From positions 157,679 to 221,678 of the forward strand of contig JAITVV010000092.1 of NCBI GenBank assembly GCA_031285625.1: 64,000 nucleotides of DNA, written 5' to 3'. The position numbers were made by a program, and so were the translations under genes. Within the stretch, counting starts at the first letter, position 1, and the number at the start of each line of letters is the position of its first letter. This document shows, in pieces, positions 2,335 through 33,685 of the stretch. Below the pieces are notes generated by a model, which saw only the letters and a program-made list of their open reading frames with translations, did no database searches and had not been told where the DNA came from. The stretch is from Prevotella sp. Its GTDB lineage: Bacteria; Bacteroidota; Bacteroidia; Bacteroidales; Dysgonomonadaceae.

Positions 2335-3849
2335 TTATAGTTCTATTTTTCTTACTTCGTCCAAAGCGTTCCCACCATTATCTATAGCCGATATGATGTC
2401 AAATATTTTATCGGACCAACCAGCTATCAAATACACATCGTTCTGAGTGATATCCAATGGAGTGTTTCCATAACCGGACAAGTCGAACAGATATAGCTTA
2501 CTGCTTGGTGATATCTTTTTATATTCATTCCATAGATCAGCTATTTTCTTGTCATTTTTGTTGTTCCACAATTGCAAATCAGTAAACATCATGACTTTAT
2601 CCATCTGTTGTTTTCTCTTTATCAGGTCTTCTATTACCAGATAACCGTTGGTTGCATAGCCTACTTCTCCTTCGCGGCGATAGAAAGCATCCACATTAGA
2701 CAATATACCTTGTGTAGGTACATTTATCACCTTCCACTTATCACCGAACATCCCGGTTATGGCATTTTCGCAGCGTGACTTCAATAGCATAGCCAGCATC
2801 AAACCTATATCATAACACAGTATTTTACTTTTAGCAGATACCGGACGTTGCATAGAGCCTGATACGTCACATGCTATCAGTACACTGGTGTCAGCATCAA
2901 AACCTTTTATATTTTCAGCAGATACAGCTACGGCTTTTTCCAATGCATCCAGTACACGGCTTGCATATGCAGACTTCACTTTAGATATTTCACGATACGC
3001 AGCCAGAAAACGGAATGGCAATTGTTTTGAACGACGTACAGCTTCCGGTGAAGCCAACGCACTGCATACTTTTATGATATGCTCTTTCGAAACATTCGAT
3101 TCCAGTATATTACGCAAGTTACGCATCAATGCCATATAGCCTATTTTACCACTATCTATCAGTTCTTCCCATTTGATGCGGAATGCAGTTCCCTTTTCAG
3201 CTTCGGAATCAAATTTTATTTGACCCAATGCAGAAAGTTCTGTTTCCCAAGTATATGGTGTTTCCAATGTATCATTTACTATCTTGTTGAACAAAGCCTG
3301 TTGGTCTTCATCCTTTGCCTTAGGGTGTACAAGAAATAGTGCATCACGAAGTTTTATTTCCGCATCACGATTATATTTTGCAAACTGATATTCATCAAAC
3401 CGGTTGAATGCATTCTGCAATCCGGCTTGTAGCTGTTTCGACAGACGATTTAGTTTCTTTGTGTCTTGTCTTTCATTAGCAAGCTGGTAGTAGGCCAACA
3501 GTTCTGTTATCTCATCTGCACGCTGCACCACTTGCAATACCATTTTGCTTACAGTAGAGTCTCCTCTGTGTATTTTAGCCAACTCTACAGCCAATACCAA
3601 TGGAATTGAACGCAGATTCATCTTCTGGCGTGTATATACAGCCAGCTGTGCTACAAATATCGGGTCACATCGTTTTATCAAACCACGCATTGTTTCAACT
3701 CGGGCTTGCGCGCTTTCGTAAAACTTGTCACTCAATGCAGAGGTAACGGCAGCAGTATACAATTGCCACTCTGGTGATAGACGGTATGCTTGTGCTCCTT
3801 CATAATTTACCACCTTGTTTTTTCCTTTGTTTCTGAAATTGAATTTCAT
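2335..3849 (-). CDS. rsr: Ro60/Rsr orthologue (TROVE + vWA domains)
   Basis: N-terminal NYEGAQAY, TPYTWETELS, GYMALMRNLRN, SKQLPFRFLAAY; vWA MIDAS DVSGSM and MFTD motifs. Confidence 0.92.
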   Translation of the reverse strand: MKFNFRNKGKNKVVNYEGAQAYRLSPEWQLYTAAVTSALSDKFYESAQARVETMRGLIKRCDPIFVAQLAVYTRQKMNLRSIPLVLAVELAKIHRGDSTVSKMVLQVVQRADEITELLAYYQLANERQDTKKLNRLSKQLQAGLQNAFNRFDEYQFAKYNRDAEIKLRDALFLVHPKAKDEDQQALFNKIVNDTLETPYTWETELSALGQIKFDSEAEKGTAFRIKWEELIDSGKIGYMALMRNLRNILESNVSKEHIIKVCSALASPEAVRRSKQLPFRFLAAYREISKVKSAYASRVLDALEKAVAVSAENIKGFDADTSVLIACDVSGSMQRPVSAKSKILCYDIGLMLAMLLKSRCENAITGMFGDKWKVINVPTQGILSNVDAFYRREGEVGYATNGYLVIEDLIKRKQQMDKVMMFTDLQLWNNKNDKKIADLWNEYKKISPSSKLYLFDLSGYGNTPLDITQNDVYLIAGWSDKIFDIISAIDNGGNALDEVRKIEL

Positions 3850-3903: not shown

Positions 3904-3940
3904 CAAAGATTCAAAAACAAGTACGCAGCTTTTTTGCGTA
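3904..3940 (-). promoter_or_regulatory. Ro60 promoter (-7-like AATCTTTG) with palindromic operator TACGCA-N7-TGCGTA (3922-3940)
   Basis: Perfect 6-bp palindrome; recurs at 7402-7420 and 28990-29008 at the same spacing. Confidence 0.7.
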
Positions 3941-5167: not shown

Positions 5168-6226
5168 ATGACAATACAAGAAATAAAGGACAAAGGGCTA
5201 TTACTATTTGAATGCATAAGTGGCAGTAAGGCATATGGTCTGGATACACCAACTTCTGATACAGACCTGAAAGGAGTATTTTATCTACCGAAAGACCAAT
5301 TCTTCGGACTGGACTATATTACTCAGATAAATAATGAGACCAACGATGAAGTATATTATGAGTTGGGGCGGTTTGTAGAATTGCTTTGTAAAAACAATCC
5401 TAACATACTCGAAATACTAGCTTCCCCTGAAGACCGTATATTATACAAGCATCCTATTATGGATAGCTTAAATATCGAACTGTTCTTATCCAAACTCTGT
5501 AAGGAAACTTTTGCGGGTTATGCTCATTCACAAATCAAAAAGGCCAGAGGCTACAAAAAGAAGATCGTAAACCCGATGGAAAAAGAGCGGAAGGATGTGC
5601 CCGACTTCTGTTATATTCTCGAAGGATATTCTTCTGTTCCGGTAAAAGAGTGGCTACAGGCGAAAGATTACCTTCAGGAAAGATGCGGACTGAGTTCTAT
5701 ACCTCATACTAAAGGAATGTACGCCTTGTTTTATGACGAAGATGATAAATTCAGATATAAAGGAATAGTACATAATCCCGACGCCAATGAAGTTGCTTTA
5801 TCTTCTATACAAAAAGGAGAGAAAGAAGTCGCCTATCTGTATTTTAATGTTGAAGCTTATTCTTTGTATTGTAAAGAGTACAAAGAATACTGGGATTGGG
5901 TTGCCAATCGCAATGAAATACGCTATCAGGGTAATCAGCAACATGGAAAAAATTATGATGCAAAGAACATCATGCACACTATCCGGCTGTTGCAGGTTGC
6001 CGAAGAAATATTGCGTGATGGGAAGCTAAATGTAAAGAGGCCTAATCGAGAACAATTGCTGAATATAAAAGCTGGAATGATGGAATATGATGAACTCTTG
6101 GTAATGGCGGACGACCTGATGCACAGGATAGAGCAATATGTCGGTAAAAGCCACCTGCAAGATATTCCTGATAAGAATAAAATAGAGGAAATATTGATCG
6201 GGATGAGAGTGAAATTATATAAATAG
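5168..6226 (+). CDS. RlaP/YcgL-like DNA polymerase-beta superfamily nucleotidyltransferase
   Basis: SGSKAYGLDTPTSDTDLKGVF (GS...DxD), YELGRF...NNPNILE, YDAKNIMHTIRLL. Confidence 0.85.
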   Translation: MTIQEIKDKGLLLFECISGSKAYGLDTPTSDTDLKGVFYLPKDQFFGLDYITQINNETNDEVYYELGRFVELLCKNNPNILEILASPEDRILYKHPIMDSLNIELFLSKLCKETFAGYAHSQIKKARGYKKKIVNPMEKERKDVPDFCYILEGYSSVPVKEWLQAKDYLQERCGLSSIPHTKGMYALFYDEDDKFRYKGIVHNPDANEVALSSIQKGEKEVAYLYFNVEAYSLYCKEYKEYWDWVANRNEIRYQGNQQHGKNYDAKNIMHTIRLLQVAEEILRDGKLNVKRPNREQLLNIKAGMMEYDELLVMADDLMHRIEQYVGKSHLQDIPDKNKIEEILIGMRVKLYK

Positions 6227-6943: not shown

Positions 6944-7067
6944 AACAAGGCAACAAACGAACAGAGACTATAATAGCTTGCTCTACCCACTGAGCTACAC
7001 CCGAAGATGACAGGAATCGAACCCGTGACCCAGTTAACCGAAGTAACTCTATTCTACGGCACTTGTT
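6944..7067 (-). ncRNA. YrlA-like cassette, array unit 3, permuted tRNA module
   Basis: Ends AACAAG/CUUGUU; GGUC-[ACGGG UUCGAUU CCUGU]-[CAUC UUCG GGUG]-UA-[GCUC AGUGGGUA GAGC]-A. Confidence 0.85.
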
Positions 7068-7482: not shown

Positions 7483-8625
7483 TTATTTCCTATTGGGGTC
7501 ATATACAGCAACAGCCACACGTGAATCAGCACAGCCATAATACAGATACCATTTTTCATTATGTAATACCAGACCTTCAATGAACACTGTTCCTGCAGGA
7601 TATTGTCCACTCTTCTCAAAATCAGCTTCCGGAATATAGAAAGGCTTATCAAGCTGCCCGATCACTTTTGTCGGATCTTGCAGGTCGAACAATACCTGTC
7701 CTGCACAATAGGAGTTCGCAGTATATGCAGTATCACCTTCTGCTCCATCTGCATTTTTGCCATTATAAAGCAAAAGGATACCCTTGTCTGTCATTACAGC
7801 AGGTGGGCCACACTCTGTAAGAGAGCTATCAAACTTGCCCGGACGAGGCACTATCACTTTAAGGAAATCTCCGCTTTCTGTCAGTATTGGAGTCCAGTTG
7901 ATCAAATCATCGGAAGTTGCAACATTCACGAATTTTTCACCCCAATACATCCAGTATTTTCCATCAATTTTAGCAATTACCTGTTTTCCATCTACAATTT
8001 TAGTTATAATCGATGCCGACTTCGAAAAATCATCTTTAAAACGTCCGTCATAAGCTTTTGCAAATGCAGGCCCATGTTTTTCCCACTTTTGCAAGTCACG
8101 GGTAGTTGCTACAGCCAGGCGTGCCTGCTTTCTGTTCCATTGTGTATACAGCATCACATACATACCATCTTCAGTCATTGTAAGACGGGGATCTTCACAA
8201 CCTCCCGGCCATTCCAGCTCTTTCTGACTATCATTGTCAGGATAAAATGCCGGAGTAGATTTTCGTTGAAAATGCAACCCATCTTCCGACCATGCATATC
8301 CAAGGCGGGAAGTACGGCCACCTATACCCTCTCCCGATTTATCCTCTGCACGATAAAGAACTACTACCTTTCCATCATAAATAGTTGCTGCAGGATTGAA
8401 GGTATCATTCGATTCCCAGTCGACAGAATCTTTTCTCAACGGACAATAGAAACGGGTGGTAGCATCCGGTGAAATAATTGGATTTATCCCTTCCGGACGT
8501 TGAAAATCAGCCCATGCCCAATCCGGAAATTCCGAACCTTTTTCAGTTGGTTTCTTTTCATTACAAGAAACGAGCATAGCAGCTGTTGCTAAAAACAAGC
8601 TTACTTTAAAAATACTTTTTTTCAT
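7483..8625 (-). CDS. GH130-family mannoside-active glycosidase/phosphorylase, lipoprotein
   Basis: TFNPAA, LYRAED, GGCEDPR, ECGPP, YYGCADS; lipobox VSC. Confidence 0.88.
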   Translation of the reverse strand: MKKSIFKVSLFLATAAMLVSCNEKKPTEKGSEFPDWAWADFQRPEGINPIISPDATTRFYCPLRKDSVDWESNDTFNPAATIYDGKVVVLYRAEDKSGEGIGGRTSRLGYAWSEDGLHFQRKSTPAFYPDNDSQKELEWPGGCEDPRLTMTEDGMYVMLYTQWNRKQARLAVATTRDLQKWEKHGPAFAKAYDGRFKDDFSKSASIITKIVDGKQVIAKIDGKYWMYWGEKFVNVATSDDLINWTPILTESGDFLKVIVPRPGKFDSSLTECGPPAVMTDKGILLLYNGKNADGAEGDTAYTANSYCAGQVLFDLQDPTKVIGQLDKPFYIPEADFEKSGQYPAGTVFIEGLVLHNEKWYLYYGCADSRVAVAVYDPNRK

Positions 8626-8729
8626 TGGTTATATATTAATTATTTATTTGCAATGTATTTTACTTGTCTATCAAAAAGTAACATTAACACAAAACATCTA
8701 CTCATCTAATAATCAGGCAATATACTATT

Positions 8730-8778
8730 AAAAGTGACAAAAGTAACACTTTTTTGTATGTTTTTATATTGTTACTTT
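8730..8778. repeat. dispersed intergenic element, copy 2
   Basis: AAAAGTGACAAAAGTAACA-N21-TGTTACTTT. Confidence 0.7.
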
Positions 8779-8893
8779 ATTGCTAGATAACACGCTTGTT
8801 ATCTGTATTATATAGACAATATTGAAAATATAAAGTAACAGCTTTATTGGTAAAGAGATCCTTCGTTCCTCTGGATGACAAAATCTTCATTAC

Positions 8894-11044
8894 TTATGGA
8901 AATGAAGGCGGATCTACCTTAGTGCCCCATTGTAAATCAGGCTTGGAGGAAGTATTATATTCCAGTGTTGCTCCATTTGAGATATCCTTCCAGTCTATCC
9001 ATGTACTATCATATGGTTTGCCATCTATCTTTAAAGACCGTATATAAATATCTTTTTCCGACCCCCCTTTTATTACCAGGTCGCCATTCTTAAGCCGCAT
9101 CTTTATAGAAGGGAAGATGGGAGTGTTTATTGAGAAGCCTCCAACACCCGGAATCTCCGGATATAGACCCACACATGCAAAAACATACCATGCACCCATT
9201 GTTCCCAGGTCATCATTTCCAGGAAGCCCATCAATCTTATTAAAGTACTGCTCATTCAGCACACGATTTATTATTTTCTGTGTTTTATCCGGACGTCCTA
9301 CCCAGTTATATATCCATGGAATATGAAAACTAGGCTCATTTCCCGAAGCATACCAATCATCGTTATAACTTGCATCTAACCGTCTGAACAGATCATCAAG
9401 CCGCGCTTCCGCCTTGGCTTTACCACCTACGATATCTATCAGTCCGCCTATATCATAAGGAACCATCCAGAAATAATTTTTGTATGTGGATTCACGGAAA
9501 TCATCGCTTAATGGCTTCCATGAGCCATCCGCATTCCGGGATTGTAACCATCCTGTTTCAGGATTATACAGATTTTTCCACGATCGTGCAAAGTGAGTGT
9601 AGCGCCAGGTTGTAAATTCGTCACCACAGGCATATAATGAAAATCTGGCAATAGCAAAATCGGCAGAGGTATATTCCAGTTGTTCAGATGCATTGTAATA
9701 GCCTTTTTCCAGATATTGTTTCAATCCCGGACGCACTTCTATTTTTTGTGACATTGAACCGGGAATTTCGGCTCCATGTTGCATTATCTTGAGGATAGGC
9801 TTAGGATTATAATTTCTGGCACCAAATGCCCATGCATTTGAAATAAGTATCGGAGTAGGATCTCCCTGCATAATTCCGGTCTCTATATTTGCCATCGCCC
9901 AACGTGGAAATCCCTGTCCACCCGTTTCCTCTGCAAACAACTGATGAGAAATCACTATATCGGAAGCAATATCAGGATCGAGCATAGAAAGAAGCTGTAT
10001 CTGTGTGTGATAGGTATCCCAGTTACTGAAAGAAGTATAATGTTTAGATTTAGTTTTATGGATCTTAAAATCCGCGCCCATATATTCCCCATTCACATCA
10101 CTACAAACATTCGGATGAATAAGTACTCGATAAAGATGTGTATAAAACTGGATAGTGCGGTCAGGATTGGTTCCTTCCACTTCTATTCTGCCTAAATATT
10201 CATTCCATTTAGCTTCAGCCTGACTTTTCGTAATATTAAAATTCCATCCTGTATTCTCAGCTCTCAGATTTTCTCTGGCATTTTCAATAGATACATACGA
10301 AACCCCTACTTTATATTGTACTACTTTATTACTACTAACATCGAAAGTAAAATATACACCGGAGTTACTCCCTTCGGCAAAGGTTGATTTTTCTCTTATC
10401 TTATCGTCTTTCCATGTTCCTGTATCAACAGCTTTAGTATCAAATTCGGCAACAAAATATACCTTATACGGTGTAGGAGTTCCACAAAAATTACCTCCTT
10501 CGGCATACCCCTCACAAGTATTTGGACTTGTAATAATTACCGTGGCATTTTCTGTATGCGTTGCAGCTACACCTGCCCCGATTATAACAGTGCCTAAATT
10601 CTCACCCTGAGGATATTCATAGCGGGCCATACCTGTTCTTTCCGTAACAGTAAGTTCAGCTTTGATATCTTCCTGCACCATCGTTTCATAATAGCCGGCA
10701 TGTCCTTTTTCTTCAGATAAATTTATGCGATAGCTGATAATATCATCAGGGGACATTTGCAACCTTCCCTTTACCGGAAAAGTAGGAAAATTCCCCATAT
10801 GCTCGCAGCCTCCACCGCTTAACTGATTGATAACAAAACCCGACTGTTTGGAAAAATAAGACGGTGTAAACTGCACCATCCCGAAAGGATAAGTAGCTCC
10901 GGGATATACATATCCGGATGCCCAGCCTACCCCTTTATTACCGATGAGCGTATTTACCTTACTTGCATAGTCTGATAGTGCCGTTTGCGCATTCATTACT
11001 AAAAAAGGAATGATAAAAAGTAGACATATCAATCTGATTTTCAT
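8894..11044 (-). CDS. GH92 alpha-mannosidase
   Basis: PGATYPFGMVQ, SNWDTY, LEYTSAD, GNEPSFH, PGNDDLGTMGAWY. Confidence 0.92.
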   Translation of the reverse strand: MKIRLICLLFIIPFLVMNAQTALSDYASKVNTLIGNKGVGWASGYVYPGATYPFGMVQFTPSYFSKQSGFVINQLSGGGCEHMGNFPTFPVKGRLQMSPDDIISYRINLSEEKGHAGYYETMVQEDIKAELTVTERTGMARYEYPQGENLGTVIIGAGVAATHTENATVIITSPNTCEGYAEGGNFCGTPTPYKVYFVAEFDTKAVDTGTWKDDKIREKSTFAEGSNSGVYFTFDVSSNKVVQYKVGVSYVSIENARENLRAENTGWNFNITKSQAEAKWNEYLGRIEVEGTNPDRTIQFYTHLYRVLIHPNVCSDVNGEYMGADFKIHKTKSKHYTSFSNWDTYHTQIQLLSMLDPDIASDIVISHQLFAEETGGQGFPRWAMANIETGIMQGDPTPILISNAWAFGARNYNPKPILKIMQHGAEIPGSMSQKIEVRPGLKQYLEKGYYNASEQLEYTSADFAIARFSLYACGDEFTTWRYTHFARSWKNLYNPETGWLQSRNADGSWKPLSDDFRESTYKNYFWMVPYDIGGLIDIVGGKAKAEARLDDLFRRLDASYNDDWYASGNEPSFHIPWIYNWVGRPDKTQKIINRVLNEQYFNKIDGLPGNDDLGTMGAWYVFACVGLYPEIPGVGGFSINTPIFPSIKMRLKNGDLVIKGGSEKDIYIRSLKIDGKPYDSTWIDWKDISNGATLEYNTSSKPDLQWGTKVDPPSFP

Positions 11045-28253: not shown

Positions 28254-28466
28254 TCAACTGAATGATGCATCTTTGGATATAAAAGAGATCAGCTTAACAG
28301 TAAGACCCTCAAGAGCAGCAGCCTCTATTTTATGATGACCATCCAACAAACAGTTGGCAAATCCCCAATGTGATACAATTCCATCTTTAGGAGTTGTAAA
28401 ACTTAGTCTCGATTGTGATTTTCTGACTTCGAGATGTTTGTGATCTATATTACTTTCCATATTCAA
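28254..28466 (-). pseudogene. small ORF or gene fragment with a ParB/Srx-like LLDGHHK motif
   Basis: 70 aa; LLDGHHKIEAA resembles the ParB-like nuclease motif but the domain is incomplete. Confidence 0.35.
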
Positions 28467-28486
28467 TCTTATTTACCATACATTAA

Positions 28487-28534
28487 AAAAGTGACAAAAG
28501 TAACAACTTATACATATATTTTATCTGTTACTTT
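28487..28534. repeat. dispersed intergenic element, copy 3
   Basis: AAAAGTGACAAAAGTAACA-N20-TGTTACTTT. Confidence 0.7.
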
Positions 28535-28581
28535 TTCTTTCTGTCCCATTTATATTAGACAATCTTAATTATATATTCTTG

Positions 28582-28777
28582 TACTCCTAATGAGATTCGA
28601 ACTCATATTCCCTTTCGGGCAGTACGGCTCTAAATACGCTTCCCTACTTTTCAGTTAAGAATTTCGGTGCATCTGTAAAATCTACCCATAACAACGCGCA
28701 GCTATTACGGGGCTATCCATACACTCTATGGTAAGTCTAAATTTTGCCACAGGCTTTTCCTTTTAAGCTATAGGAGC
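28582..28777 (-). ncRNA. tRNA-like RNA (Leu-type body) with a 119-nt structured segment in place of the anticodon loop
   Basis: Acceptor GCUCCUA/UAGGAGU + A73; D arm GCUU/AAGC; anticodon stem UGUGG/CCGUA; variable arm CCC-GAAA-GGG; T arm AUGAG-UUCGAAU-CUCAU. Confidence 0.75.
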
Positions 28778-28784
28778 AAATTAT

Positions 28785-28935
28785 AAACGAGGTAACAGGC
28801 GAAAAGAGACTGTTTATCCTGCTCTACCACTGAGCTACACTCCCGTTAATTTGTATTACTGAGAGAGTGAGGGGACTCGAACCCCCGACCCGGGCATTAA
28901 AAGTGCGAAGTAACTCTAATCTACGACACTCGTTT
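28785..28935 (-). ncRNA. YrlA-like Y RNA with a complete circularly permuted tRNA module
   Basis: Ends AAACGAG/CUCGUUU; frame; GGGUC-[GGGGG UUCGAGU CCCCU]-[CACUCUC..18 nt..GGGAGUG]-UA-[GCUC AGUGGUA GAGC]-A. Confidence 0.87.
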
Positions 28936-28972
28936 TATGCTTTGTATATGAATGATCGCTTGTTTGATGATA

Positions 28973-29008
28973 CAAAGTAAAAGCACCGGAGCGCAGTGTT
29001 TTTGCGTA
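28973..29008 (-). promoter_or_regulatory. promoter (-7-like TTACTTTG) with operator AGCGCA-N7-TGCGTA (28990-29008)
   Basis: Third copy of the Ro60/Y-RNA operator at the same spacing. Confidence 0.7.
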
Positions 29009-29199
29009 CAGATATTTATTTGATAAATAATTTTAGAAATAGTTATGATAAGACTAATAATCAACATTTTGTACAAAACATTATATAAATAGTGAGACAA
29101 CTACAATTATCATATTTATAAATTTCATATGAGTTGTTAATTAAAAATACAAAGATAATGTCTTACTTTGTGCCACATTAATAACACAACTAACTACAC

Positions 29200-29886
29200 A
29201 TGATAAGAATAACCATTTTATCGATCCTTCTCCTTGTAATATCCCAAAATATACAGGCACAATCTGAAACAATCACAGACAGTATCTACATAAAAGCAGA
29301 TGAAATGCCTCAGTTTCCCGGTGGTGAAGAGGCTTTAGTCAGACATATATCATCCAATTTAAGCTATCCTCGAATAGCGATCGAGGCAGGCGTACAAGGC
29401 CGTGTGGTTGCACGCTTTGTTGTCGGGGCAACAGGTCTGGTCAGAGATATAGAAATTATGAGAAGTCTACACCCTGAATGCGACAAAGAAGTAATAAGGG
29501 TAATAAACCTGATACCACAATGGATACCTGGGAAAATGGATGACGAAAATGTCTCAGTCTACTTTACCTTACCTGTAATCTTCCGGCTACCGCATGATTA
29601 TATAACAGATGATGAAAATGATTCAACAGAGGAGTATGATTCAACTGAGGATATTATTTTGACCGAAAGTGAGTATGGACCAGCTGACTCAGCGGAAGAA
29701 TTCATTTCGAATTTCGAGCGCTTTATGAATGAGATTTATTTATTACCCGATCCCGATAATTATGTAAATGACTTTAATACAATAAGTAAAGACTATATAA
29801 AATTTCAGGATCAACTCAACGAAGAGCAGGTTATGCAATTAGTAAAAATACTGGAAGATGCACAGAAACAGGAAAAAGAAAAGTAA
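29200..29886 (+). CDS. TonB C-terminal domain protein with acidic tail
   Basis: MPQFPGGEEAL, YPRIAIEAGVQGRVVARFVV, WIPGK...VYFTLPVIF. Confidence 0.85.
   Translation: MIRITILSILLLVISQNIQAQSETITDSIYIKADEMPQFPGGEEALVRHISSNLSYPRIAIEAGVQGRVVARFVVGATGLVRDIEIMRSLHPECDKEVIRVINLIPQWIPGKMDDENVSVYFTLPVIFRLPHDYITDDENDSTEEYDSTEDIILTESEYGPADSAEEFISNFERFMNEIYLLPDPDNYVNDFNTISKDYIKFQDQLNEEQVMQLVKILEDAQKQEKEK

Positions 29887-33610: not shown

Positions 33611-33685
<75 letters not shown>

Follow-up and report, generated by a model that had tools for sequence, protein, structure and literature searches.

A tRNA-framed RNA with a conserved closed domain in the company of RNA-repair genes in some Bacteroidota

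Introduction

RNA-repair operons with RtcB, Ro60 or Pnkp/Hen1 are widespread in bacteria, and their substrates and the roles of their non-coding RNAs (ncRNAs) are largely unknown. The closest described relative of the RNA studied here is the band 7-associated transfer RNA (b7a-tRNA), a prediction that is reportedly due to Burroughs and Aravind in 2016. In the Discussion of a preprint, b7a-tRNA is presented as predicted beside Band-7 and RtcB, occasionally Rsr, as not validated, and as a proposed cofactor of RNA ligation (bioRxiv 10.1101/312249). In the literature searched, this 2018 preprint is the only one to mention b7a-tRNA, and Rfam 15 does not contain it. Here, we analyse a tRNA-framed RNA of about 200 nt that is encoded next to a Y RNA in a 64,000-nt stretch of DNA (the window) from contig JAITVV010000092.1 of a Prevotella sp. 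genome (GCA_031285625.1).

Introns in tRNA genes are known from bacteria, where group I introns occur in tRNA-Leu(UAA), and from archaea and eukaryotes, where the introns are spliced by proteins. A first-pass annotation of the window read the RNA either as a tRNA-Leu(UAG) with a protein-spliced intron or as a tRNA-scaffolded ncRNA, possibly a decoy, under the Ro60 regulon. We find that the tRNA-framed RNA is real and that its key helix had been mis-paired. The intron reading is rejected, while a tRNA-scaffolded ncRNA in a Ro60/RNA-repair regulon is supported. Judging from sequence comparison, the gene probably encodes a stable, trans-acting tRNA mimic in a WYL-controlled RNA-repair regulon of some Bacteroidota, a reading to which we assign a probability of about 0.55.

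Results

A tRNA upper half fused to a closed domain

The RNA consists of the upper half of a tRNA, fused to a hairpin with an oversized loop (hairpin A) and to a 6-bp stem (stem B) that closes a conserved domain of ~90 nt, or ~100 nt with the stem itself. From 5' to 3', the acceptor strand and D arm are followed by hairpin A, a GAGUG linker, stem B with the enclosed domain, the extra arm and the T arm (Table 1). The 7-bp acceptor stem contains G1.U72 and is followed by an A discriminator. The D arm pairs GCUU with AAGC around the loop AAAAGGAA, the extra arm reads CCC-GAAA-GGG and the T arm AUGAG-UUCGAAU-CUCAU. This scaffold (acceptor, discriminator, D arm, GAAA extra arm and T arm) had been recognised in the first-pass annotation and is confirmed on the minus strand, as is the 7-nt gap that separates it from the closing stem of the Y RNA. 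The RNA shares with canonical tRNAs the 7-bp acceptor, the G18G19 D arm and the UUCRANY T loop, and lacks their 5-bp anticodon stem with a 7-nt loop and U33. Stem B encloses first a variable hairpin, then the segment UAGAnUUUGCAGAnGCACCGAAA, a second, smaller hairpin that is also variable, and finally the core AGUAGGGAAGCGYAUUUAGAG. In the inner domain, GAAA faces AGUA in an internal loop that resembles a loop-E or bulged-G motif.

The single-sequence fold of the RNA is unremarkable (z = -1.76); the evidence beyond chance is comparative. We gathered 181 stretches with the core motif, 164 of which gave both ends; the other 17 were incomplete or did not fit. The 164 copies represent 151 distinct sequences, mostly of 190-208 nt. 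For alignment A1, 154 sequences of 185-215 nt were reduced to 74 representatives with less than 90% identity and, after omission of one (L060), to 73. RNAalifold predicts 49 pairs for A1, with compensatory changes in 37. Over these 49 pairs, 97.6% of the cells are paired and 826 cells carry double changes, compared with 35-43% pairing in slid controls, and none of 500 shuffles reaches any of five pairing measures. The acceptor, D and T helices (helices 1, 2 and 11) pair in 99.2-99.5% of the cells with changes on both sides, and in the acceptor all seven pairs have changed on both sides. The letters T8, A9, A14, G18, G19 and A21 are invariant in A1, as is the GTTCGA of the T arm. The loop of hairpin A measures 12-21 nt in the 73 homologues and starts with N-AAAAG; A33-A35 are invariant, which places an A where tRNAs have U33.

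Four short strands can be paired in two ways in this genome. Hairpin A (columns 26-31/53-58) together with stem B (62-67/178-183) is 98.3% paired in A1, with 152 double-change cells and 0/500 shuffles reaching this value. Hairpin A alone is paired in 96.8% of the cells and has both-side changes at three pairs; stem B alone is paired in 99.8%, with 46, 44 and 33 sequences doubly changed at three of its pairs. The first-pass annotation had instead drawn an anticodon stem (UGUGG/CCGUA; columns 27-31/178-182) and a hairpin CCAUA/UAUGG (53-57/63-67). These helices can be drawn in the one sequence, but in the 73 homologues they are 69.3% paired, which equals the shuffle mean of 69.3% and is reached by 297 of 500 shuffles. 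In Flavobacterium the strands read CUACAG/CUGUAG and UGCGG/CCGCA, so that only hairpin A and stem B can form.

Within the inner domain, covariation bears out the previously drawn hairpin CCCCGUAAUAGC.../...GUUGUUAUGGG (helices 5 and 6). The helix AAAAUUUA/UAGAUUUU, once thought to enclose it, fares no better than chance, with 75.8% of the cells paired vs 75.0% in shuffles and only three invariant A-U pairs that are universal. The motif AUUUAGA had been noted near both ends of the insert; its second copy lies in the invariant core, whereas the first is unconserved even within the genus. Columns 122/169 switch between G-C and A-U in 5 of the 73 sequences, which supports a long-range UGC/GCA pairing across the domain. 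Non-nested covarying column pairs in A1 gave clade-linked signals only, without a run of neighbouring pairs, and we therefore claim no pseudoknot. In L141, which is part of A1, and in L060, a longer hairpin replaces AGAAG.

No Rfam 15 family was found on the tRNA-framed RNA, either at the gathering score or, in a scan of 28400-29200, at E ≤ 10; the latter scan also gave no match to the tRNA family RF00005 there. A covariance model of the RNA itself (R1) scores it with 185.8 bits (E = 5.7e-55). Default ARAGORN was blank over the RNA and reported in the whole window only a tRNA-His at 33612, likewise the only one in Rfam at the gathering score. When the 130-nt inner part was compared with the whole genome by blastn-short, only chance words of ≤17 nt at ≥94% identity were found, and hence no mimicry of ribosomal RNA or tRNA by sequence. 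At the 3' end, 139 of the 164 copies have A as discriminator, 22 have G and 3 have U; all 164 continue with C, and CCA is not encoded. The host's own tRNA genes mostly end likewise in N73-C74 followed by A/T-rich sequence, again without CCA, and this common flank suggests that the 3' end of the RNA is processed as that of a tRNA.

The supposed intron

With introns allowed, ARAGORN makes the same call as the first-pass annotation, namely an 85-nt tRNA-Leu(tag) with a 112-nt intron at 32/33. Covariation does not support the helix at the supposed junction. We rejected an intron-containing tRNA-Leu as a candidate, as the real helices cut across the junction and the hairpin A loop has 12-21 nt with A33. 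The best-conserved letters, together with four to five helices that covary or are invariant, lie in the supposed intron. An EndA-type splicing endonuclease (PF01974) was not found in the 94%-complete genome, while the controls were positive in four archaea, and Rfam at E ≤ 10 gave no group I or other intron family on the RNA. The genome has a normal tRNA-Leu(tag) gene elsewhere. ARAGORN also lists three odd tRNA-like genes, two of them adjacent, with 'anticodons' ca, cttt and ctgg (G000:C91:51991-52160 and C80:14147-14219), and no tRNA-Leu(taa) in this assembly.

Four sequencing runs were examined over 28300-29100, all as contigs, which report presence only and not ends, strand or level; one of them, X3, may be DNA. 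RNA run X13 contains a 173-nt contig wholly within 28588-28760 that is unspliced across the supposed intron. A 251-nt contig from RNA run X11 lies over 28737-28944 and takes in the Y RNA along with the 5'-most 41 nt of the tRNA-like RNA. Splice joints were absent from the four runs, although contigs drop rare forms and a rare spliced form could escape.

Gene company

The tRNA-like RNA is a single-copy gene at or near the head of operons with SPFH/Band-7, RtcB, Ro60 and RlaP. The 831 open reading frames (ORFs) that lie up to 3.5 kb from one of the 164 copies were clustered, and the clusters were assigned to families with Pfam. SPFH/Band_7 genes occur at 74/164 loci (downstream in the same orientation at 65, at a distance of 537-921 nt), WYL+WCX regulators at 53 (52 upstream and divergent), RtcB at 45 (38 downstream, same strand), Ro60 with its TROVE domain at 17 (nine end ~40 nt upstream), RlaP at 15 (mostly downstream, same strand) and RNaseH_like genes at 14 (mostly upstream, same strand). 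At least one of these six RNA-repair families is present at 128 of the 164 loci and at 21 of the 23 loci that have 3 kb on both sides. The space between the tRNA-like RNA and SPFH holds one or two YrlA-like RNAs. At loci of the Cytophagales type, the order is Ro60, tRNA-like RNA, Y RNAs, three tRNAs and RtcB. Within the genus, one copy stands between a divergent WYL gene and a 157-aa ORF followed by RlaP (G014), and another precedes a 162-aa ORF and RtcB (G021). The two ORFs directly behind the RNA belong to no family.

Other ncRNAs adjoin the gene as well. Same-strand tRNA genes are found at 75/164 loci, with up to 19 per locus and with Gln, Arg, His, Asp, Tyr and Lys among the commonest anticodons; at 12 loci a tRNA gene ends 1-39 nt before the tRNA-like RNA. 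At eight loci, in some Flavobacteriaceae, a GOLLD-like RNA ends 14-18 nt before it. Rfam RF02032 scores three of these GOLLD-like RNAs with 127-136 bits, below the gathering score of 150. As a side observation, the GOLLD-bearing loci also hold tRNA arrays, YrlA-like RNAs and an SPFH gene, and GOLLD is possibly linked with RNA-repair islands; a literature search on GOLLD with RtcB/SPFH and related terms found no paper combining them. RNA-repair/SPFH loci of two phyla (L242-L253, proteobacterial; L043, L045, L150, L057 and L175) likewise hold tRNA genes of ordinary size, in arrays that reach 19 genes per locus. The anticodons met most often in these arrays are Leu(tag), Gln, Arg(acg), Phe, His, Asp, Tyr and Lys; some of the 'Leu' tRNAs measure 73 nt and have no long extra arm. 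Such arrays may serve as spares against anticodon nucleases.

The cassette in the window and its putative operator

In the window, the RNA belongs to a free-standing cassette of two RNAs, a Y RNA and, after 7 nt, the tRNA-like RNA. Rfam YrlA matches the Y RNA at 28818-28893 with 34.3 bits (E = 1.4e-5), which falls short of the gathering score of 69, and the unit also has a 28.7-bit tRNA-like match in the E ≤ 10 scan. Its terminal stem (28935-28785) is present in the fold, and a compensatory change from AACGAG/CUCGUU to AACAAG/CUUGUU occurs among six copies. The neighbours are SusC/SusD, a 70-aa ORF and a TonB-like gene, without repair proteins. The 70-aa ORF (28254-28466) was considered as part of the cassette and rejected; it has no Pfam family and recurs in only one other species (L014, L062) among the loci examined. 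An Rfam scan of the 18 kb upstream of the window gave no further ncRNA.

The same cassette lies among unrelated genes (efflux protein, integrase, thioredoxin) in G000, G023, G027, G024 and G004. These cassettes stay 82-90% identical, and the BLAST match stops at the RNA ends. Since the cassette is kept intact among unrelated genes, with matches ending where the RNAs end, the tRNA-like RNA would act in trans.

A palindromic box, RCGCA-N7-TGCGY, covers the -33 region of the promoter from which both RNAs would be transcribed, and a TACTTTG further on resembles the Bacteroidota -7 promoter motif TAnnTTTG. The box has four sites in the 4.84-Mb genome, all within 45 kb on contig C37; with N6-8 spacing, the palindrome has 7 sites vs 13-23 in shuffles. 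The other three sites precede the divergent Ro60/methyltransferase-RlaP promoter, a UPF0167-121aa-WYL operon and the Hen1/Pnkp-ligase/Pnkp-kinase-phosphatase operon, and all four are followed by a TTTG-type -7 motif after 9-16 nt. The WYL regulator lies ~16 kb ahead of the window start. RCGCA-N7-TGCGY is a putative, and likely, operator of the WYL regulator that would mark out an RNA-repair regulon. The promoter of the Y RNA is homologous to that of the operon-leading copies in G005, G014, G021 and L048; a search with a 21-letter promoter word allowing ≤5 mismatches gave no second copy near other repair genes. The earlier suggestion of a tRNA-scaffolded ncRNA under the Ro60 regulon is largely borne out by these results, through the repair company at 128/164 loci and through the rare box that is common to the Ro60/RlaP, Hen1-Pnkp and WYL promoters.

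At the RtcB locus of G000 (contig C29; L216:5391-6170 and 7560-9267), ORFs of 260, 163, 263 and 146 aa flank the gene, followed by a metallophosphatase. Of these, the 263-aa ORF gives Pfam matches below threshold only, and the other three belong to no Pfam family.

Table 1. Positions of the tRNA-framed RNA, its parts and associated elements (window coordinates unless a genome or locus is named).
Feature	Position	Strand	Remarks
tRNA-framed RNA, whole	28582..28777	-	196 nt to discriminator A; C74 at 28581
Acceptor 5' strand, U8 A9, D arm	28753..28777	-	acceptor 5' strand 28777-28771; D arm 28768-28753; A14, G18, G19, A21
Hairpin A, at anticodon-arm position	28726..28752	-	6-bp stem CUGUGG/CCAUAG; 15-nt loop starting C-AAAA
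Stem B, 5' strand GUAUGG	28717..28722	-	partner strand 28627-28622
Conserved inner domain	28628..28716	-	variable hairpin 28711-28685, segment UAGAUUUUACAGAUGCACCGAAA, small variable hairpin, near-invariant core; helices 5-9 of A1
Near-invariant core AGUAGGGAAGCGUAUUUAGAG(CC)	28648-28626	-	in the inner domain
Stem B, 3' strand CCGUAC	28622..28627	-	covariation with 28717..28722
Extra arm, T arm, acceptor 3' strand, discriminator	28582..28621	-	extra arm 28621-28607; T arm 28606-28590; acceptor 3' strand 28589-28583; discriminator A 28582; helices 10, 11, 1
YrlA-like Y RNA	28785..28935	-	terminal stem around permuted tRNA-like module (T arm, closed acceptor hairpin, D arm)
TACTTTG	28973..28979	-	read from sequence
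Box RCGCA-N7-TGCGY	28991..29007	-	over -33 region of the promoter for Y RNA and tRNA-like RNA
Other three N7 boxes	3923-3939; G000:C37:143133; G000:C37:150038
Ro60	2338-3849
RlaP-like gene	5168-6223
Second YrlA-like RNA	6955-7055	-	35.2 bits, E = 8.3e-5, sub-gathering; between RlaP-like gene and GH130 gene
GOLLD-like RNAs	L045:2282-2759; L150:5453-5939; L118:5108-5608	-	five more loci

Distribution

A 401-nt query comprising the Y RNA and the tRNA-like RNA matched 15 of 61 related genomes, and the tRNA-like RNA alone was found in 9 of 35 genomes of the genus, the window's own included. By species, four have both RNAs, four only the tRNA-like RNA and three only the Y RNA. In the closest relatives, the BLAST match runs from the start of the Y RNA to the 3' end of the tRNA-like RNA. 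Further afield, the core motif with its 21 specified letters occurs in at least 119 stretches of genome contigs and in 62 of metagenome contigs. Among the matches listed are Flavobacterium, Aquimarina, Tenacibaculum, Dokdonia, Dysgonomonas, Apibacter, Chryseolinea, Cyclobacteriaceae, Chitinophagaceae and metagenome-assembled genomes (MAGs) of Bacteroidales. Two oddly assigned bins, a Limnohabitans MAG and a Peribacteria MAG, are also listed.

In sampled genomes of ≥90% completeness, R1 detected, as a lower bound, one true copy beyond the window's own among 150 genomes spread evenly over the phylum (G182, 163 bits) and no copy among 150 genomes of the order. Four weak matches of 163-198 nt in other members of the phylum were rejected as pairs of adjacent tRNA genes, and the remaining phylum matches are likewise single tRNAs or adjacent tRNA pairs. 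The window's genome and two complete Flavobacterium chromosomes each carry a single copy of the RNA. Its high identity across classes and its patchy spread over Bacteroidota fit an accessory gene that moves laterally. In G024, a second, divergent copy stands in tandem (L006:2085-2319, plus strand). Here a Y-like RNA precedes a tRNA-like RNA of reduced length, in which the ACAGAUGCA...AGUAGGGAA core is retained and both 5' hairpins are missing (31.7 bits with R1).

Discussion

A proposed tRNA mimic in an RNA-repair regulon

We propose that the tRNA-like RNA acts in trans as a stable tRNA mimic within a WYL-controlled RNA-repair regulon. Upon RNA damage, the WYL regulator would turn on the cassette together with Ro60/RlaP and Hen1-Pnkp. 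RNase P would then cut at the 5' end of the acceptor stem, and the same cut would create the 3' end of the upstream Y RNA or, in some Flavobacteriaceae, of the GOLLD-like RNA. The 3' end of the tRNA-like RNA would be trimmed as for a host tRNA. We envisage that the tRNA-like half is held by the tRNA-handling repair enzymes RtcB and RlaP, while the conserved domain may bind a scaffold protein. Where SPFH is present, this could be SPFH; in the genome studied here it would be another partner, for example Ro60 or RlaP. The RNA would then function as a tether or cofactor, as the Y RNA does for Ro60.

Several observations weigh against this proposal. In the window's genome, RtcB lies on another contig, the operon-type SPFH orthologue was not found with the query used, and a search with the strict box pattern gave no site ahead of either the RtcB operon or the second Y RNA. 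The X13 evidence is one short contig with a depth of 5.9, and DNA is possible in such RNA libraries. Kin share changes, so the shuffle figures (0/500) overstate independence. Helices 7 and 8 are built on near-invariant letters and have one covarying pair, in 5/73 sequences. Moreover, A1 was gathered with the fixed 21-letter core, which means that the invariance of the core is partly built in; the 21 letters are kept in nine full-length copies that BLAST found in the genus, and one letter differs in the G182 copy that was found with the covariance model. Finally, R1 scored 16 candidates per genome, so that its counts are lower bounds and the rarity of the RNA may be overstated.

Other explanations

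The RNA might instead be a sentinel or decoy that offers bait to anticodon nucleases or other ribotoxins. Its cleavage would either spare the tRNAs or yield a fragment sensed by the WYL regulator, and RtcB would reseal it. We consider this unlikely, though the tRNA-like shape, the exposed oversized loop at the anticodon-arm position and the location in RtcB operons under a WYL regulator all speak for it. So do the same-strand tRNA genes at 75/164 loci: among their commonest anticodons, those for Gln, Arg, His, Asp, Tyr and Lys are frequent targets of nucleases. There is also a precedent in Salmonella, where the rtc operon is induced by damaged tRNAs and YrlA is suggested as a competitive nuclease inhibitor (PMC7790460). 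Against it, the oversized loop is only partly conserved (N-AAAAG, then variable), with neither U33 nor a fixed anticodon-like triplet. The most conserved part is the compact closed domain, which seems better suited to binding, and the RNA runs, available as contigs only, contain no fragments. That domain also makes it very unlikely that the tRNA-like frame is simply an RNase P/RNase Z site which sets the 3' end of an upstream ncRNA and releases the tRNA-like piece as a by-product. The start of the RNA 7 nt after the Y RNA in the window, 14-18 nt after a GOLLD-like RNA at 8/164 loci and 1-39 nt after a tRNA gene at 12/164 would suit such a signal. For this task, however, the acceptor/T half would suffice and ordinary tRNAs do the same job; a processing signal would not keep a ~90-nt covarying domain with a near-invariant core across classes, and many copies sit directly behind a promoter with nothing upstream to process.

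The RNA could also be aminoacylated and play a non-decoding role, as in tmRNA-like rescue or as an amino-acid donor for a non-ribosomal reaction. In favour of this, the acceptor stem and the D/T elbow are intact, A73 is present, the gene has the N73-C74 end of host tRNA genes, and leucyl-tRNA synthetase does not read the anticodon. We hold this to be highly improbable, because the acceptor stem is freely variable without a visible fixed identity set and the company consists of repair genes instead of translation genes. The first-pass annotation was right to see no acceptor signature of transfer-messenger RNA (tmRNA): columns 3/232 are CG in 61, UG in 8 and UA in 3 of the 73 sequences, never G3.U70. 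There is also no tag reading frame, ARAGORN -m and the Rfam tmRNA models gave nothing above chance on the RNA, and a normal tmRNA is encoded on contig C30. As for a tRNA-Leu(UAG) gene whose ~112-nt insert is removed by protein enzymes and whose halves are joined by RtcB, we leave it scarcely any chance. ARAGORN with introns allowed makes exactly this call, RtcB is among the neighbours, and the discriminator A and extra arm would suit a class II tRNA. Against this stand the junction helix at shuffle level and the real helices that cut across it, an insert that is the best-conserved part, the missing EndA and group I matches, the normal tRNA-Leu(tag) and the unspliced contig, even if a rare spliced form could be lost in contigs. 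Were the stem-B domain excised in place of this insert, the 'anticodon' loop would remain at 12-21 nt and carry A33.

Implications

A strongly covarying RNA of ~200 nt is thus described that is absent from Rfam 15, and the tempting annotation as tRNA-Leu plus intron, which ARAGORN returns when introns are allowed, is corrected. The 'tRNA-like cofactor' idea of 2016 becomes directly testable through the covariance model and secondary structure reported here, together with the gene partners and the candidate operator. Because the tRNA-like RNA adjoins Y RNAs, GOLLD-like RNAs and tRNA arrays, these may all belong to one damage-response system. A bolder reading, to which we give only a slim chance, is that the closed domain is a new functional module in the tRNA scaffold, either a catalytic or damage-sensing fold or a dock for SPFH rings or GOLLD assemblies. 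The RNA would then act as the specificity subunit, guiding RtcB or RlaP to tRNAs that are broken, and Y RNAs, GOLLD, tRNA arrays and RNA ligases would be joined in one RNA-repair particle.

Comparison with known systems

Of the known RNAs with tRNA-like parts, intron-bearing tRNAs resemble the present one in the long insert between tRNA halves and in the link to RtcB, the joining enzyme of the protein-spliced pathway. They differ in that our RNA has no conserved anticodon stem, group I core or splicing endonuclease, and in that its insert is the conserved part. With tmRNA it shares tRNA-like ends around a large structured body and, as predicted, tRNA-like processing; it differs by its D stem and extra arm and by the lack of G3.U70, a tag ORF and a series of pseudoknots. 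The mascRNA of MALAT1 is a tRNA-like element for 3'-end processing. Here, too, a tRNA-like unit directly follows another ncRNA (Y RNA or GOLLD-like RNA), whose 3' end RNase P would set. Unlike mascRNA, the RNA described here is bacterial and has a large conserved domain of its own, and its processing is only predicted.

YrlA (RF02553) is closer. It mimics the upper half of a tRNA, belongs to Ro60/RtcB repair operons, occurs at the same loci, often adjacent, and is thought to tether proteins. However, YrlA is a permuted tRNA, with its open end at the stem that binds Ro60 and its acceptor closed, whereas the tRNA-like RNA is open at the acceptor and closed at the far end. The latter has no Rfam YrlA match and no terminal stem of the Ro60 type, that is, no stem carrying the Ro60 site around a permuted module.

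The b7a-tRNA, as far as its description in the preprint goes, is likewise a tRNA-like ncRNA gene beside Band-7/SPFH and RtcB, and sometimes Rsr/Ro60. This adjacency is found across the 164 loci, though not in the window itself. Compared by description only, our RNA differs in its length of 190-215 nt, in lacking a 7-nt anticodon loop and in its closed domain of ~100 nt. When 201 genomes were sampled from the class to which G210 belongs (a Limnohabitans bin, by title), 17 were found to encode close SPFH orthologues (45-57% identity). A scan of 11 proteobacterial SPFH loci revealed YrlA-like RNAs and ordinary-size tRNA genes upstream, and no R1 match. Given the ordinary-size tRNAs and the missing R1 match at these loci, the 200-nt form may be a Bacteroidota variant of the b7a-tRNA idea, or it may be the same RNA as that drawn in 2016.

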